A stretch of DNA of 64,000 nucleotides, taken from positions 1,536,001-1,600,000 of the forward strand of contig CBDCOZ010000003.1 of NCBI GenBank assembly GCA_965220085.1, written 5' to 3'. Source of the stretch: Candidatus Oxydemutatoraceae bacterium (lineage in GTDB: Bacteria; Pseudomonadota; Gammaproteobacteria; Poriferisulfidales; Oxydemutatoraceae). Of the stretch, positions 41,174 to 56,616 are shown piece by piece. Under the pieces are notes generated by a model. It saw nothing but the letters and a program-made list of their open reading frames with translations. It did not search any database and was not told the DNA's origin. A program made the translations under genes and the position numbers. How positions within the stretch are numbered: the stretch's first letter is position 1; each line of letters starts with the position of its first letter.

Positions 41174-41548
41174 TCAGCCCTTGGCCCGTTTGGCGCCGTA
41201 CTTTGAACGGCCTTGGGTGCGATTCTCAACCCCTTGCGTATCCAGGCTGCCGCGCACGATGTGATAGCGCACACCCGGCAAATCCTTGACCCGTCCGCCG
41301 CGGATCAAAACCACCGAGTGTTCTTGCAGGTTGTGGCCTTCGCCGCCGATATACGTCGTGACTTCGTAGTCGTTGGTCAGGCGGACGCGCGCGACTTTGC
41401 GCAACGCCGAGTTGGGTTTCTTCGGGGTGGTTGTGTACACACGAGTGCACACGCCTCTTTTTTGAGGACATCGTTCAAGCGCGGTAACATTGCTTTTTGC
41501 AATCTTGCGCTTACGCGATTTGCGTACCAATTGATTGATAGTAGACAT
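41174..41548 (-). CDS. rpsL: 30S ribosomal protein S12
   Basis: [25 protein letters not shown]. Confidence 0.99.
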
Positions 41549-41620
41549 AAATTTTTAATATCTTGCTGCAAAATATCAGCCCGCCATTCGTAATACCTGC
41601 GAACAGGAAACTTTGGCCTA

Positions 41621-41656
41621 GCCGCGCATTATAATTGGGAATCGAAACTAAGTAAA
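41621..41656 (-). promoter_or_regulatory. Sigma70 promoter of the str operon with GC-rich discriminator
   Basis: Minus strand TTTACT-N17-TATAAT-GCGCGGC about 80 bp upstream of rpsL. Confidence 0.65.
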
Positions 41657-41687
41657 GCGGAAAAAAGAGAATTCTTGCCGGATTCCG

Positions 41688-41717
41688 CCGGCAACGGAAA
41701 TTGTTGTGAAAATGGCG
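41688..41717. repeat. Left copy of ~30-bp imperfect inverted repeat (partner 44259-44287)
   Basis: CCGGCAACGGAAATTGTTGTGAAAATGGCG vs reverse complement of partner CCGACAGCGGAAATTGTTGT-AAAACGGCG: 3 substitutions + 1 indel. Confidence 0.7.
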
Positions 41718-41967
41718 CGGTTCAATCGCAATTTTCCCGCATCGTCATAGAGATAGGGGCAACAATACCGCCCTTTGCGGGCGGCGACACTATATATATG
41801 GCGGCCATGACCCCCCCTATCACGCCACTTTCCCGCCCGCGCCAAGATTTCCGAAGGACAAGATTATGGGGGGCCTTCCGCAAAAGAACGCTATCGTGCG
41901 GTCTCGCAATCTTACAAGGTGATGTTTGAGAACCTTCTCTCCCGCGAGGAGCGCCGGTCAGCGGATG

Positions 41968-42454
41968 TTATCGTAGCGGGCCTGCGAGAAGGAGTGTCGT
42001 GCGAGTGCTGCGGCTTGCTCGCGCTATCGCAGCGGGCCTGCGAGAAGGGGCGTGTCGTGCGAGTGCTGCGGCTTGCTTGCGCTATCGCAGTCGGCATTCA
42101 AGAAGGGGTGTGTCGTGCGAGCGCCGAGGATGGCTCGCGCTATCGCAGTCGGCATTCAAGGAGGGCGTGTCGTGCAAGCCACCGAGGCTTGCTTGCGTTA
42201 TCGCAGTCGGCCTTCAAGAGGGAGTGTGTCGTGCGAGTGCTGCGGCTTGCTTGCGTTATCGCAGTCGGCCTTCAAGAGGGAGTGTGTCGTGCGAGTGCTG
42301 CGGCTTGCTTGCGCTATCGCAGTCGGCATTCAAGAAGGGGTGTGTCGTGCGAGTGCTGCAGCTTGCTTGCGCTATCGCAGTCGGCATTCAAGAAGGGGTG
42401 TGTCGTGCGAGTGCTGCGGCTTGCTCGCGCTATCGCAGCGGGCCTTCCAAGAAG
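41968..42454. repeat. Tandem array: 8 units of 58 bp (first 56 bp) plus the gene 3' end as a partial ninth unit
   Basis: Unit starts 41968, 42024, 42082, 42140, 42198, 42256, 42314, 42372, 42430; consensus CTATCGCAGTCGGCATTCAAGAAGGGGTGTGTCGTGCGAGTGCTGCGGCTTGCTTGCG. Confidence 0.97.
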
Positions 42455-43958
42455 AGGCGCAGGCGCAAGCGTATATCAACCCCCAGGTTGATGGTCATCG
42501 TATAGGTGTCTGCGCTGTCTGCGACGCCATCGTGCACTGTGAAGGTGAAACTGGCGAAGTCGGAGGCGGCGCGAGCGCCCATCGGGGGATACCAGGTGAA
42601 AGTGCCATTGTCCAGATTGGCAACGGTCACCGAGGCGTCGTCGGTCACTGCGGTACCGCCGATGCGCAACGTGCCCGTGCCGACTGCTATGGTCTCAACG
42701 ATGGTGATGGCGACCAGGGCGGCGTTGTTATCCTCATCCATGAACGGGAAGTCGGAGACCTTGAAGACGAAGGGCGCGGCTAAGGTTGTGGTTGTGGGCA
42801 CCTTCACCGAATTGTCGGCGCTGGTAGGGGCATCGTTGACATTGCGGATGATGTTGCCTGTGGTGCAGCGTCGCTCGCTGTTGGGCGGCGTGAAGTTGTC
42901 CTCAAAGGATACGCACACCCGCACAAACTTGTCGACATGCGCCTGCAACGGCGTGAAAGTGGCGGCGGTGGCCCCGTCAATATCGGCGTAGTTGGCGTCT
43001 GTCAGGGGCGCGTCATTGCCCGGAGGATCAGCCTGTTGCCATTGCCAGGCGATGGTGGAGCGGTTAATACCGCTATTGGCATCTGCGATAGTGCCGGTGG
43101 TGGCGGTCAGGGTCACATCCTCGTTCCAGGGCGGCGCTGTCACATCGGGCAGACCGATGGCCTCCACCTGCGCCGTCGGCAACACCAGGTTTATGGTGAT
43201 GGTGGCCATGTTGCTCCGGGAGAGGGTGGGTGAAAATACGCTGAAAGTAAAGCTGGCATAGCCCTCAGCAGGTGCCGTTGCATCTTCGGGCAACCTGTAC
43301 ACTGGGCCGTTAATTCCTCCGAAGTCAGGGAGTAGTGCATTATTACCCTCCCCCCAGATAAGCCCAGCGGCACTATGAATAGAACCAGCGCAGTAGCAGG
43401 TTGGGTTTCTATTACTACACCTCCAATGTCATCGTCATCTTCGTCAAAGAAGGTGAAGTCATCTGACGAGAAGGCATAGCTCGCGGTACCCAGTGGAATC
43501 TCAATAGTGTTGTCCTGGGCAACAGGCAAATCATCCACATTCACCACGGCGGCGACGGAGGACCAGCATCGGGTCTCGCTGTTGCTGGCGTCATCCTCAA
43601 AGGTCGCACAGGCGCGGATGAACTTGCCGACATGGACCTGCAATGGGGTGAACATGGCCTCGGTCGACGTGGTGTTGGTTATATCAATGTAGGCGCTTTC
43701 CGTCGGTGTGCCGCTTACCGGGGCATCGGCTTGTGACCACTGCCAAGTCGGCGTGAACACGGTGAGGCCATCGGCGGTATCGCCTATCGTGCCTTGGGCT
43801 GCGGTCAGTGCGTTGTCCTCGTTGGGTCCCGTCGTAGTCAGATTGGTGCCGTCGGCTGCCGTCACCGCCGGTTCGCCGGTGGCGTTCTGCGCCTGCGCTT
43901 GAGCGCAAACAACAAACAGCGCCGGCAACAGAAGCGAGCAGAGGCTGCGCCGTATCAT
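42430..43958 (-). pseudogene. Secreted Ig-like/cadherin-like repeat protein (~509 aa if repaired), split by one frameshift near 43350-43395; ends DIRLRLRLFLEGPLR
   Basis: GGGAG RBS + signal peptide MIRRSLCSLLLPALFVVCAQAQA; two (X-Y) domain pairs across ORFs 43191..44105 and 42430..43302: X = LTA..GTI.D...WQW.QAD...FTPLQ.HV.KF.R.C..FED; Y = N..D.P...DN...F...DF.F.DED...ASFTF.V. Confidence 0.8.
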
Positions 43959-44258
43959 CGTTGCTCCCCGCCGCGCGGGGGCGGTATCGTAAGTTTTGCA
44001 GTTCATGCTCTTGCTTTGATCAGGGCGAGCAACATCAGCGACCACAGACTCCCGCGGATTCGTGTTGCCTGCCGTTGCGCGGGAGTCATATCGAAAATTT
44101 GACAAATCATATCTACGGTTTTAATAACGACATGTTTCATGCATGCACGATTAGTGCCCTACTATACCATAAAACGCGCGTCACCCGCCAATGCCGTTGT
44201 ATCTTGCCGCATCCCTGTGCGCCCTGACATTCCCTTCTCCCCGCCGGATATTTGCAAT

Positions 44259-44287
44259 CGCCGTTTTACAACAATTTCCGCTGTCGG
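44259..44287. repeat. Right copy of ~30-bp imperfect inverted repeat (partner 41688-41717)
   Basis: CGCCGTTTTACAACAATTTCCGCTGTCGG; its GCCGTTTTACAAC core recurs at 47711-47723. Confidence 0.7.
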
Positions 44288-44341
44288 GCGGGCGGAGTCG
44301 CGTACGCAAGCCCCCTATGCCGATTACGCTTGATGCCTGTT

Positions 44342-44664
44342 TGATGCCATGCCATATCGACACCTGCGGCAAATATTGTGCCCTGTCCTGAGTACTTGAA
44401 GCCTCGGCCCGCAATATACTTCCGGCAACCCGGAACATTTCCGGCATGACTCACCTTTGATACCAAGACACATCGGACGCCGGCGCCACACATTGTGCGT
44501 CGTGGGTGTGTGATGCTTCGGCCCGCAACAAACCCTCTTCAAATCCCAAACTCTTCCCGAAGCGTACGGCGAAAGCGCTCATTGAATGCGCATGATGCCA
44601 TGCCATATCGACACCTGCGGCAAATATTGTGCCCTGTCCTGAGTACTTGAAGCCTCGGCCCGCA
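44342..44664. repeat. Perfect 72-bp direct repeat (44342-44413 and 44593-44664), 179 bp apart
   Basis: TGATGCCATGCCATATCGACACCTGCGGCAAATATTGTGCCCTGTCCTGAGTACTTGAAGCCTCGGCCCGCA read at both positions. Confidence 0.95.
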
Positions 44665-44693
44665 GCGCGCTCCCTTTTATAGCGTGTTGCTCC

Positions 44694-44792
44694 CATCATC
44701 TCAGAGCTTCAAGGTTTGGCGACATCCGCCCTCGTCCGGAATCTTCCACATTGGCCAGTTCATCGTCTCAGGGCTTCAAGTTGGCGACCATC
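44694..44792. repeat. Imperfect ~32-bp direct repeat, period 67 bp
   Basis: CATCATCTCAGAGCTTCAAGGTTTGGCGACATC (44694) vs CATCGTCTCAGGGCTTCAAGTTGGCGACCATC (44761). Confidence 0.8.
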
Positions 44793-45001
44793 GTTGCCTC
44801 CTGTACGCCGGAAGCGGCTATTCTACAGGCTTTTGCGGCCGTAGAATGTGTCGATATTGCGGCAACCCGTGTCAAAGCGGCAATCCGCAATGCTTCCGGC
44901 GCCAGCGCTTGGGAGCCCGCAGCGCCGCAAACAAATGCGCTGGTTGCGGGGCGAATATCTCGCACAGCGGCAGGCGCGGGCTTCGTGCGCGCCGCCATCG
45001 T

Positions 45002-45090
45002 TCCAATATCTGGTATACTGCGCTATCGGGGTGAGCAACTTGCTCCTTTAGCTCGCCCCGTCCGCCGCCGCTCCAATATCTGGTATACTG
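45002..45090 (+). promoter_or_regulatory. Duplicated 19-bp element containing an extended -10 (TGgTATACT), flanking a hairpin
   Basis: TCCAATATCTGGTATACTG at 45002-45020 and 45072-45090; CGGGGTGAGC/GCTCGCCCCG stem between them; upstream of the 45175 gene. Confidence 0.55.
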
Positions 45091-45174
45091 GCATCATTCC
45101 GATTAGCCCGATGAAAGAGTCGCCCGCACACAACGCCGATGCCGTCACATCTCAGTTTGCATAAGTATTTCCGC

Positions 45175-47565
45175 ATGCCTCCTTCCTTCCCCTGCATTTT
45201 TGCCAGGGTTTGCGCAACACTGTTCGCCGGTGTCTTCGCCGCGAACACCGCACACGCACAAGCCGGCCAATCCAACTGCACCCTCAACGAGGCGCTCACC
45301 CAAGTTCCCTCCGCCCAGCGCGCGCAGGTCTCCATGCAATTTGAGGCCTGCGCGGACAAGGACTGGGCGGCGCAAAAGCATTTCCTCTTCGGCGAAGGGT
45401 TCGGCTTTGACTTCTGCTACTGCAATGTCCGAGTGCTGGATGCGTCCTCGTCGAGCGAATGCGACCACCCTGCGACGACCTCCGCACTCAGCGCCACCGT
45501 GGACAACAACTTCAACCTCCACTATTACTTCGGCGCGACCCTGCAGTATCTTCCGGAGCGGACGGAGGAAAACAAGGACGCCTGCTTTGTGGCGCATTGT
45601 TTGGACGGGAAGGAGCCGTCGGGGTTTAATATGAACGGCGAAACCGAATGCGCAACGCCCTCAACGGCGGTGACGGTTCGCGCCATAGCGATGCCGGCAG
45701 AGGGCGGGAGCGCTGCCATTATGGGCGCGACCACCGCCTCGGTGATTCTCAACACCACCGCAACCATCGTCGCCACTCCGGCGGAGGGATGGTATGTCGA
45801 TCGGTGGGAAGGCGACGGCGGCGCTTGCGACGGTCAAACCGGCAGGCTCGAAGGTTTCAGGGGCGTGGACACAGACGAGAAATCTTGTTCGCTGCCCGCC
45901 AGCGCCGGACTGACTGTGACGGCGCATTTTGCGTTGGCGCGGGTGACGGTTCGCGCCATAGCGATGCCGGCGGAAGGCGGGAGCGCTGCCATTATGGGCG
46001 CGACCACCGCCTCGGTGATTTCAAACACCACCGCAACCATCGTCGCCACTCCGGCGGAGGGGTGGTATGTTGACCGATGGGAGGGGGACGGCGGGGCCTG
46101 CGCCGGACAAGTTGGCGGGTTTGGAAGTTCCGGAGCGGCGGACACGGATGAAAAATCCTGTTCGCTGGCCGCGAGCGCCGGACTGCGGGTGACGGTTCGT
46201 TTCGCGTCGGCGCTGTGCGTTTTCAGCGAACTTCCGTCGGGGCTGCAAACCGAGTTGGTCTCCCTGCAGATTGACGCGTGCAACGCGAAAGGATGGGGGG
46301 CGCAAAAGCATATTTTCGGCGGGGCGGAAGTGTGCCACTGCAACATCAATGCGTGGGACGGGAGGAGCGGCGACCCGGCCCGGCAGTCGTGTTTGGACGG
46401 CTCCCTCCCGCCGCATCGAACCTCCGGGTTTTCCTCGCTTGGAGAGACAAACTCCAACACGGTCGCCCCATTTTACTTCGGCGCGACCCTGCAGTATCTT
46501 CCGGAGCGGACGGAGGAAAACAAGGACGATTGTTTTGTGGCGCGATGTTCGGGGTTGACGGAGCCGTCGGGTTTCAACACAAACGGGGAGACGGAATGCC
46601 TCGCGGCAAGCGGGGCGATTTGCGGGGGTTTGACTCCGGCGAAAAATTTTGACGGCGTCGCCTGCGTGGAAGGTTGCGCGACGGGAGCGACATTGAATTC
46701 GGCTACGAACACTTGCGAATGCGGCACGGGCAATCCTAACGACTGCCTGACGCCGAGCGAGGCGGTTTGCGCGGAGCTGACTCCGCCGAAGTTTTTTGAC
46801 GGGTCGGATTGCGTTGATTTTGCGACTTGCGCGGGGCTGTTGACTTTGAATCGGCAGCATAACGGGTGCGAGTGCCGCGCGCCGAATGTTGGGACGGCTT
46901 CGGATTGTCGGGCGCCGAATCCGATTGTTTGCGCCGCGCCGGCGGTTCGGCATCCGACGGCGAATGTTTGCCAATGCAATGCGCCGAATGTTGGGACGGG
47001 GGCGGACTGCAAAGCGCCAAGCGCGGAGGTTTGCGCGGCGCTGAGTCCGGGGAGGTTTTTTGACGGGTCGGGCTGCGTTGATTTTGCGGAGTGCGCGGGG
47101 CTGTTGGTTTTGAATCCGGCGCGCAACGGCTGCGAGTGCCGCGCGCCGAATGTTGGGACGGCTTCGGATTGTCGGGCGCCGAATCCGATTGTTTGCGCCG
47201 CGCCGGCGGTTCGGCATCCGACGGCGAATGTTTGCCAATGCAATGCGCCGAATGTTGGGACGGGGGCGGACTGCAAAGCGCCAAGCGCGGAGGTTTGCGG
47301 GGGGCTGAGTCCGGGGAGGTTTTTTGACGGGTCGGGCTGCGTTGATTTTGCGGAGTGCGCGATGGCGGCGACATTGAATGCGGCGGCGAATACGTGCGAA
47401 TGCAACTCGCCCAACGAAGGGACGGCGCAGGATTGCAAGGCGCCGAGCGCGGAAGTGTGCGGGGATTTGACGCCGGCGAAGCGCTTTGACGGAACTGCCT
47501 GCGTCGATGCGCCCGAAGACATCAACCTGCGTCTGCGTATCTTCCTTGAGGGCCCGTTGCGATAG
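45175..47565 (+). CDS. Secreted cysteine-rich modular protein with two InlB B-repeat-like domains and Cys-rich tandem repeats; ends DINLRLRIFLEGPLR (alternative start 45139)
   Basis: Signal peptide ...AGVFAANTAHA-Q; 2 x 91-aa repeat (ATPAEGWYVDRWEGD...C...C...VT..F); 2 x Cys domain ending YFGATLQYLPERTEENKD; 88-aa repeats with 10 Cys each. Confidence 0.88.
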   Translation: MPPSFPCIFARVCATLFAGVFAANTAHAQAGQSNCTLNEALTQVPSAQRAQVSMQFEACADKDWAAQKHFLFGEGFGFDFCYCNVRVLDASSSSECDHPATTSALSATVDNNFNLHYYFGATLQYLPERTEENKDACFVAHCLDGKEPSGFNMNGETECATPSTAVTVRAIAMPAEGGSAAIMGATTASVILNTTATIVATPAEGWYVDRWEGDGGACDGQTGRLEGFRGVDTDEKSCSLPASAGLTVTAHFALARVTVRAIAMPAEGGSAAIMGATTASVISNTTATIVATPAEGWYVDRWEGDGGACAGQVGGFGSSGAADTDEKSCSLAASAGLRVTVRFASALCVFSELPSGLQTELVSLQIDACNAKGWGAQKHIFGGAEVCHCNINAWDGRSGDPARQSCLDGSLPPHRTSGFSSLGETNSNTVAPFYFGATLQYLPERTEENKDDCFVARCSGLTEPSGFNTNGETECLAASGAICGGLTPAKNFDGVACVEGCATGATLNSATNTCECGTGNPNDCLTPSEAVCAELTPPKFFDGSDCVDFATCAGLLTLNRQHNGCECRAPNVGTASDCRAPNPIVCAAPAVRHPTANVCQCNAPNVGTGADCKAPSAEVCAALSPGRFFDGSGCVDFAECAGLLVLNPARNGCECRAPNVGTASDCRAPNPIVCAAPAVRHPTANVCQCNAPNVGTGADCKAPSAEVCGGLSPGRFFDGSGCVDFAECAMAATLNAAANTCECNSPNEGTAQDCKAPSAEVCGDLTPAKRFDGTACVDAPEDINLRLRIFLEGPLR
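45670..46203 (+). repeat. Two intragenic 273-bp (91-aa) repeats
   Basis: GTGACGGTTCGCGCCATAGCGATGCCGGC at 45670 and 45943. Confidence 0.9.
46792..47360 (+). repeat. Intragenic 264-bp (88-aa) near-identical tandem repeat, slightly over 2 copies, with degenerate flanking units
   Basis: TTTTTTGAC-GGGTCGG anchors at 46801, 47065, 47329. Confidence 0.92.
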
Positions 47566-47690
47566 CCGGCATCACTCCGCTCAAGCCGCCGGCGCGTCCC
47601 GTTTGCTTCCTTCGTCGCATGGGTTTCTTGAACAGCGGTCTGCGGGTGCGGCCGACTGCGGCGCGGCAAGGGAGGGCTACCCGCCGCTCA

Positions 47691-47726
47691 CCGTGTAAAA
47701 ACGGCAAGATGCCGTTTTACAACGGC
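47691..47726. terminator. Hairpin between the convergent Cys-rich gene and rpoC
   Basis: CCGTGTAAAAACGGCA-AGA-TGCCGTTTTACAACGG imperfect inverted repeat. Confidence 0.5.
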
Positions 47727-47790
47727 TGCTCATCATCGGCTAGGCGGCGCGTATACGCCGCGGGGGCTTTATCGCCCGAGCGGAGGGCCC

Positions 47791-51987
<4,197 letters not shown>

Positions 51988-56241: not shown

Positions 56242-56616
56242 TCACTTGAGCTCAACAGATGCGCCCGCTTCTTCAAGCTGCTTCTTGATTGCTTCCGCTT
56301 CTTCTTTGGTCGCGCCCTCTTTGACAACGGACGGAGCGCCTTCGACCATCTCCTTGGCTTCCTTGAGGCCAAGACCGGTAATGCTGCGAACAACCTTGAT
56401 AACGCCGACCTTGCTGTCTCCAAAACCGCTGAGGGTGACGTCAAAGCTGTCTTTTTCTTCCGCTTCCGCCGCCGCGGCCGCGGCCGCCGCCGGCGCCGCC
56501 GCAACCGCCGCCGCCGTCACACCAAACTTTTCTTCCATTGCGGAAACAAGATCGACGACATCCATCACCGACATTTCGGAAATGGCATCAATTATATTTT
56601 CCTTTGATAAAGACAT
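56242..56616 (-). CDS. rplL: 50S ribosomal protein L7/L12
   Basis: [10 protein letters not shown] hinge, [12 protein letters not shown]. Confidence 0.98.

Follow-up and report, generated by a model that had tools for sequence, protein, structure and literature searches.

A 58-bp tandem array at the 3' end of a cadherin-like protein gene, probably a dispersed non-coding minisatellite

The DNA analyzed here, referred to as the window, is a stretch of 64,000 nucleotides (nt) from Candidatus Oxydemutatoraceae bacterium (contig CBDCOZ010000003.1, positions 1,536,001 to 1,600,000). It holds a 58-bp tandem array at the 3' end of gene A, which encodes a cadherin-like secreted protein. A second gene, gene B, lies on the opposite strand and has a different body, and its end (...INLRLRIFLEGPLR, also written ...LRLRIFLEGPLR, before the stop) is the same tail as that of gene A. 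The genes, the tail, and the parts of the array are listed below, with the repeat units numbered outward from gene A in a tail-then-linker register.

42430 to 44105, minus strand: gene A, encoding a secreted cadherin-like protein that belongs to the tail family (Pfam, Atlas, and fold matches)
45139 to 47565, plus strand: gene B, 808 amino acids, with an InlB B-repeat-like body that differs from that of gene A
42430 to 42471, minus strand, and 47524 to 47565, plus strand: the tail (tag) of gene A and of gene B, respectively
41968 to 42454, minus-strand reading: the 58-bp tandem array, starting inside the last 8 codons of gene A
42430 to 42453, minus strand: u0 tail part, the last 7 codons of gene A plus TAG (FLEGPLR and stop), the first array copy
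41968 to 42429, minus strand: eight units, each consisting of a linker of 34 nt and, after it, a stop-terminated tail copy of 24 nt
42396 to 42429, minus strand: u0 linker
42338 to 42395, minus strand: u1
42280 to 42337, minus strand: u2
42222 to 42279, minus strand: u3
42164 to 42221, minus strand: u4
42106 to 42163, minus strand: u5
42048 to 42105, minus strand: u6
41992 to 42047, minus strand: u7, 56 nt
41968 to 41991, minus strand: u8, a tail copy only, reading LLAGPLR and stop, with unique DNA beyond

Tandem Repeats Finder reported the array at 41994 to 42454 with a period of 58, 7.9 copies, 88% matches, and a score of 666. A search with a 21-nt pattern of the tail, allowing up to 3 mismatches, gave eight in-register minus-strand matches at 58-nt spacing and none in shuffled sequences. 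The same pattern also matched the end of gene B (47545 to 47565), and a degenerate tail-codon pattern found both gene ends in the window. Neither this pattern nor a unit pattern matched any locus in the genome collection searched, which did not contain the source genome or its relatives. When the minus strand was cut in 58-nt steps from 42453, the tail copies read, from the gene outward, FLEGPLR (the gene), LLECRLR twice, PLEGRLR twice, LLECRLR twice, LLAGPLR, and then the tail-only LLAGPLR, each followed by a stop. The array totals nine tail copies and eight linkers, with the gene at one end and a tail copy at the other. An earlier reading of this DNA (the original prediction) had described variants of the gene tail joined by linkers of about 34 bp and had given eight unit readings, and the recut array matches that description exactly. 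It had also stated that every unit keeps L-R-stop (TAG or TAA as the stop and CTG or CTA for Leu), that the units are mosaic, and that the distal ones retain GPLR. All three points were borne out; u3 joins the linker of u2 to the tail of u4, a CCTCGG block is common to u4 and u5, and the last two copies are those reading LLAGPLR.

The units adjoin directly, with the full 58 nt repeated and with neither spacer nor cargo between them, and every minus-strand frame across the array contains 4 to 6 stops. The linker sequence does not occur elsewhere in the 64-kb window. Units u1, u2, and u6 are mutually 2 nt apart, u3 differs from u2 by 3 nt, and u4 carries a 1-nt insertion that is compensated by a 1-nt loss at its end. 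The interior units are homogenized to a mutated variant, GCCGACTG, and the edge units retain the ancestral GGCCCGCTG. The latter is common to u0 and u7 together with a GCGCGAG linker, and these two units share an identical tract of 44 nt (CTGCGATAGCGC...).

The tail from which the copies derive is conserved across a protein family. Homologues were collected with the C-terminal open reading frame (ORF) of gene A as the query (E <= 1e-3), and 60 of the resulting 91 proteins have the C terminus FLEGPLR, usually as LRLRLRLFLEGPLR. The tail was present in every homologue from three contigs, of 2,046,636 bp (49 homologues), 230,214 bp (3), and 215,991 bp (8); the remaining 31 homologues lie on other contigs and are cadherin-like but lack the tail. 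The family bodies are 33 to 53% identical to the query, with the exception of P0003 (80%). In a 30-member alignment the tail was invariant save for one position, which was conserved in at least 90% of members. The full tag is LRLR(L/I/V)FLEGPLR, 12 residues long, and the family consists of signal-peptide-bearing cadherin/immunoglobulin (Ig)-like proteins (P0002 to P0073). Within FLEGPLR and its stop, genes A and B differ at four nt, all of them synonymous. These synonymous-only differences, together with the family-wide presence of FLEGPLR, indicate that the constraint acts on the peptide rather than on the DNA. The AlphaFold model of the gene A C-terminal protein (mean pLDDT, 89.9) consists of tandem beta-sandwich domains, for which the fold matches are cadherin and Ig-like; residue 243 is the end of the last strand, and the tail (residues 246 to 259) extends beyond the last domain as a flexible coil with a pLDDT down to about 67. 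Pfam and NCBIfam have no model for the tag, and the tail peptide was absent from the literature searched. We regard the tail as a candidate new C-terminal recognition or sorting tag.

The copies in the array are not maintained as tails. In each of the eight non-gene copies, 2 or 3 codons are changed non-synonymously at positions that the family holds invariant, namely, F to L or P, E to A, G to C, and P to R. Variable columns were found at 10 of 24 positions in the tail part versus 13 of 35 in the linker (Fisher P = 0.79), and when the aberrant linkers of u4 and u5 were left out, the tail part was the more variable of the two (10 of 24 versus 5 of 35; P = 0.03). An array-type tail (ECRLR, EGRLR, or AGPLR) was found in 0 of the 60 tail-bearing homologues. 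Although L-R-stop is conserved in all copies, so are other blocks, e.g., GCACGACAC, and this conservation is unremarkable at 88% overall identity. The best alignment of the units to the gene requires a one-base gap (gene, CTTCTTGGAAGG; units, CTTCTTGAA(G/T)G), indicating that the in-frame L-L-E reading is partly fortuitous. Continuation of the gene frame across the shared CTTCTTG into u1 would give FLNADCDSASKLQHSHDTPLLECRLR followed by a stop, with the loss of EGPLR, and none of the 60 tail-bearing family proteins has an end of this type.

Arrays of the same kind were found at other loci by means of their antisense strand. Over 41968 to 42454, two plus-strand frames are free of stops and the third has one stop, and gene callers therefore sometimes annotate ORFs over such arrays. 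Three such ORFs are open in the window.

41919 to 42491, plus strand: antisense ORF of 190 amino acids through the array, used as the probe for other arrays
41999 to 42505, plus strand: open ORF of 168 amino acids
42052 to 42783, plus strand: open ORF of 243 amino acids

These plus-strand ORFs are taken to be artefacts of the stop-free strand and not genes. The other arrays were read from antisense ORF translations; the count thus covers arrays that are annotated as ORFs and stands at three or more. A word-index search with the 190-amino-acid ORF recovered P0094 (198 amino acids), from the 2,046,636-bp contig but outside the window, and it recovered no shorter ORFs over arrays. P0094 is the antisense translation of an array of about 6 units, with 27 forced mismatches in 345 nt against the window consensus unit, mostly at sites that are variable in the window array. 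Read antisense, its end can encode the C terminus of P0020 over 37 of 37 testable residues and the stop, and the next best of 61 proteins reached 14. This second array, of about 6 units, accordingly reads as one that probably begins at the stop of the P0020 gene. A HMMER search, which had no length limit, added P0095 (348 amino acids), an array of about 16 units of 54 to 57 nt. For P0095, the end agrees with P0013 at 19 of 19 testable residues and at the stop, and the next best protein, P0007, fits 17; the third array would thus adjoin a gene ending like P0013, the discrimination between P0013 and P0007 depending on three residues. P0020 and P0013 are 39% and 45% identical to gene A, respectively. 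The same variants recur in all three arrays, namely, GGCCCG(C/T)TG versus GGCCGACTG (CCG versus CGA) and the CTA Leu codon. The window array is therefore not unique to its locus, so that the uniqueness named in the original prediction as counting against it does not hold, and at least two more arrays lie behind other tail-bearing genes, each apparently adjoining such a gene's stop, in keeping with the suggestion in the original prediction that the array is tied to the shared 3' end of the family.

Four further HMMER matches (P0096 to P0099; E values of 9e-22 to 8e-4 and 23 to 33% identity) were rejected as unrelated, since they share only the 58-residue period. These proteins have a strict period of 58 residues and are probably translated tandem DNA repeats of other organisms. 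Periodic queries, such as the 190-amino-acid ORF in HMMER, collect periodic artefacts.

Our preferred reading, with a probability of roughly 60%, is a non-coding minisatellite located in the 3' untranslated region (UTR) or intergenic DNA of gene A. The array has three properties of a minisatellite or variable-number tandem repeat (VNTR): the unit is repeated head to tail and falls within 10 to 100 bp (period of 58, 7.9 copies), the array runs past the gene A stop into non-coding intergenic DNA, and the unit is dispersed at several loci, as seen through the antisense ORFs P0094 and P0095. A neutral minisatellite had been one of the alternatives in the original prediction, and it is the best supported of them, given the non-synonymous changes, the variable tail part, and the homogenized interior. 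The seed may have been a tandem duplication of the gene end of about 24 nt (FLEGPLR plus stop) together with 34 nt of 3' flank, with subsequent expansion by replication slippage or unequal exchange. The tail copies would then be pseudo-tails past the real stop, untranslated and decaying freely. A derived homogeneous interior with ancestral-looking edges is typical of arrays growing by unequal exchange, and the distribution of GCCGACTG and GGCCCGCTG may reflect such an edge effect of concerted evolution. The same edge effect would account for the retention of GPLR in the distal units. The unit would represent a small dispersed family of at least three arrays, each arising from the stop of a different paralogue, with the invariant tag as the shared anchor. 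Its presence behind several paralogues could be due to inheritance with duplicated 3' ends or to movement by gene conversion anchored on the tail. The sequence can be explained without assigning the array a part in termination, recombination, or tag switching.

Several observations weigh against this interpretation. That arrays recur behind three or more paralogues that are only distantly related is as compatible with a retained function as with the inheritance or spread of neutral DNA. The sequence CTGCGATA(G/A), which codes for L-R-stop, shows only synonymous changes in the nine copies in the window. The copies in the P0020 array appear to retain LEGPLR and the stop, which could mean either youth or constraint. 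The case for neutrality, in addition, is drawn from one genome.

The window covers the conserved cluster of rplKAJL, rpoB, rpoC, rpsL, rpsG, fusA, tuf, S10, and others; rpoC, rpsL, fusA, rplB, secY, and rpoA were confirmed, and 5 tRNAs were found in the window (Rfam, gathering score). The window has the gene order and composition of a str/S10 cluster of the Gram-negative type. Within the conserved rpoBC-str cluster, rpoC and rpsL are usually close neighbours. In the window, an insert of about 6 kb (41549 to 47790) holding the divergent genes A and B lies between rpoC (47791 to 51987) and rpsL (41174 to 41548). Two features stand between the array and rpsL.

41675 to 41694, minus strand: terminator-like hairpin between the array and the promoter-like site of rpsL
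41628 to 41656, minus strand: promoter-like site (TTTACT, 17-nt spacer, TATAAT; 10 of 12 matches) ahead of rpsL (41174 to 41548)

The hairpin is likely the end of the gene A transcript. A 24-nt inverted repeat (88% complementary; 41688 to 41711 and 44264 to 44287) encloses gene A and the array, and one of its arms overlaps the hairpin. The intergenic region between genes A and B contains a 72-nt perfect direct repeat (44342 to 44413 and 44593 to 44664, 251 nt apart) as well as three copies of a 35-nt motif and two of a 29-nt motif with a CCAATATCTGGTATACTG core (44385 to 44670 and 44992 to 45090). These direct repeats may be duplicated promoter or regulatory DNA. Elsewhere in the window, upstream of rpoB, a (CCG)17 run with 79% matches (56466 to 56516) could, on the minus strand, encode the Ala-rich hinge of ribosomal protein L7/L12.

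Gene A is read as two ORFs, 43191 to 44105, which includes the signal peptide, and 42430 to 43302, and its minus-strand end is ...DIRLRLRLFLEGPLR plus TAG. A single frameshift falls between about 43311 and 43400, with a run of six G's at about 43350; a pseudogene, a phase-variable tract, and a sequencing error are the candidate explanations, and gene A may be decaying. The gene is also a mosaic. Its N-terminal half is 65% identical to residues 1 to 210 of P0004 and its C-terminal half is 74% identical to residues 174 to 502 of P0003, whereas the reciprocal halves are only 43 to 44% identical, indicating that recombination between paralogues has occurred at the gene A locus. Gene B contains in-frame tandem repeats on the plus strand, at 45669 to 46213 and 46751 to 47446 (273 bp in 2 copies with 85% matches and 264 bp in 2.3 to 2.6 copies with 88 to 93% matches), which encode Cys-rich modules. 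On its 3' side, neither the linker nor an array was found. A weak tail-like stretch (TTCTTGAA..., followed by GCCGACTGCG at 47651) lies at 47624 to 47660 on the plus strand, about 60 to 95 nt past the gene B stop, and may be a decayed solitary unit. Its local alignment is marginal, as 31 of 1,000 shuffles scored as well, and the 10-mer also occurs once at 1803. An inverted repeat between the AQAQAQ signal-peptide codons and the LRLRLR codons was considered and rejected; about 11 nt are shared by eye, none of 16 nt or longer was reported, and the similarity is a by-product of codon complementarity.

Other explanations assign the array a function. Arrays of this kind might be parts of a contingency system for a surface family of at least 60 members, acting either as 3' recombination anchors for cassette exchange or as a slippage switch of the tag and its sorting. 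We consider this unlikely; if true, it would be a new kind of variation device, made from a sorting signal's own codons. The anchor version, taken by itself, holds that the arrays extend the 3' homology of the family and promote or accompany gene conversion and domain shuffling among at least 60 paralogues. It draws on the chimeric structure of gene A, with its P0004-like and P0003-like halves, and on the unit variants common to the arrays behind three diverged paralogues. A precedent is provided by tandem paralogues in Staphylococcus aureus, for which PMC2568036 reports an evolution unit spanning the 3' part of one ORF, the spacer, and the 5' part of the next. However, such mosaicism is possible without arrays, only 3 arrays were detected versus 61 tail-bearing proteins, and gene B has no array. 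Homology between the distal flank of the array and the 3' flank of gene B, which would have pointed to an ancestral gene end, was dropped because 329 of 1,000 shuffles scored as well. A role as an anchor appears quite improbable. In the switch version, which the original prediction had put forward as silent alternative C termini, slippage or conversion with a variant unit would replace or destroy the tag and reversibly switch sorting. The units do supply variant tails with stops, continuation of the gene frame through CTTCTTG into FLNADCDSASKLQHSHDTPLLECRLR would remove EGPLR, and patchy conversion between units is evident from their mosaic structure. The absence of ECRLR, EGRLR, and AGPLR from all 60 tail-bearing homologues argues against it, as does the upstream homology, which amounts to 7 nt (CTTCTTG) and is one base out of register, so that an exchange there would shift the frame. 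The long identical tract of u0 and u7, where exchange is likely, leaves the tail unaltered, and the copies of the P0020 array seem to offer no alternative tail. We find such a switch decidedly improbable.

The remaining explanations concern RNA, a protein product, or DNA integration. The sense-strand RNA could act as a C-rich, poorly structured 3' UTR, either as a Rho-loading (rut-like) zone or as a stability element shielding the rpsL operon. The array is on the same strand as, and between, the gene A stop and the rpsL promoter-like site, and the other arrays also come directly after stops. The sense strand is 38.5% C and 24% G, and its C/G ratio of 1.60 places it in the top 2% of 2,542 same-size windows. 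The minus-strand RNA folded worse than 100 of 100 shuffles (z = +2.63). However, the composition is not extreme, as the windows with a higher C/G ratio are the antisense strands of tuf and fusA; the terminator-like hairpin at 41675 to 41694 is a separate element downstream; gene B and apparently most paralogues have no array; and gene A itself is frameshifted. This role is about as improbable as that of a recombination anchor. A plus-strand product, whether an antisense RNA array pairing with the family 3' ends, as in the original prediction, or a real repetitive protein, would fit the long open frames (ORFs of 190, 168, and 243 amino acids), the annotation of P0093, P0094, and P0095 as proteins in the source, and the complementarity of each unit to the family tail. 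The interval from 41564 to 44224 yielded no promoter-like site on the plus strand, the plus strand folded no better than shuffles (z = +0.35), and no covariance-model match to an Rfam family was found in 41550 to 42520 at E values up to 1. As for a protein, the same DNA is read in rotating frames, units measure 54 to 58 nt depending on the array, and the only real relatives are the other arrays, the other four matches merely sharing the 58-residue period. The bulged stem proposed for each unit can be drawn, but neither covariation nor folding supports it: pairing occurs in 81% of cells, a two-sided change is seen at 0 of 10 pairs, and 422 of 500 shuffled sequences do as well. For a 5-bp stem (GCGAG/CTCGC), a single compensatory change was counted, which 303 of 500 shuffles also reach. 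With promoter, Rfam, structure, and covariation results all negative, the processed or antisense RNA finds no support in the sequence, and a plus-strand product of either kind is highly improbable. The last proposal holds either that repeated site-specific integration and excision have left scars at the tail, as in the original prediction, or that an integron- or CRISPR-like array stands empty here. It takes its appeal from direct repeats that include the gene 3' end, like att sites. Against it, the units adjoin with no cargo and no unique spacers of the CRISPR type between them, and the linker is confined to the array within the window. The attC core-site motif is RYYYAAC ... GTTRRRY, and neither strand of 41968 to 42454 contained such sites; no stable palindrome of the attC type was found either. 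The interval between genes A and B holds no ORF of 100 or more amino acids other than A, B, and their other-frame overlaps, although these ORFs were not searched for recombinase families. We give scars or an empty array hardly any credence.

As a probable non-coding minisatellite, the array can be compared with several known systems. The nearest precedent for a stop-spanning unit comes from MIRU, for which Supply et al. reportedly described, in 1997, units with small ORFs overlapping the stop and start codons of flanking genes. Neisseria pilS, with its conserved 3' repeat, and Borrelia vls are silent-cassette antigenic variation loci. They resemble the array in having tandem promoterless 3' partial copies of a surface-protein gene, short linker repeats, and a recombining family. 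In contrast, their cassettes hold the variable region and are recombined into expressed genes, whereas the array units hold only eight family-invariant codons in degraded form, and unit-type tails are found in 0 of 60 proteins. REP/BIME elements are likewise short GC-rich repeats just past stop codons, sometimes clustered. However, REP is defined by a stable imperfect palindrome, and the array folds no better than shuffles and has no stem-loop kept by compensatory change. In M. tuberculosis, MIRU-type minisatellites of 40 to 100 bp occur at 41 intergenic sites, according to PMC2734929, and the likeness to MIRU/VNTR loci as described there lies in tandem units of 40 to 100 bp, an intergenic position, several loci per genome, and a function that is debated or absent. 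The array differs in that its unit has no known sequence relationship to MIRU and derives from the last codons of one paralogous family, with every array seen starting at the stop of such a gene. We consider the array to be of the same kind as MIRU and do not file it as a member. The tandem lipoprotein paralogues of S. aureus provide a parallel of another type, in that the evolution unit comprises a 3' ORF end, the spacer, and the next 5' end; as reported in PMC2568036, it is out of register with the ORF, includes the stop and spacer, belongs to surface-protein paralogues, and arises by unequal recombination. In that account, however, the units are of whole-gene size and all copies are functional genes, whereas the array consists of 58-bp non-coding relics.

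The array alone would be an ordinary slippage product and a possible marker for strain typing. It also carries a warning for annotation, since wrong-strand ORFs over three arrays have been annotated as proteins. The value of the array is that it points to a large unnamed family of secreted cadherin-like proteins, with 49 or more members encoded on one 2.05-Mb contig, and this tagged protein family is a more unusual object than the array itself. If the arrays affect recombination, termination, or tag loss, they would provide a new link between a minisatellite and surface variation.

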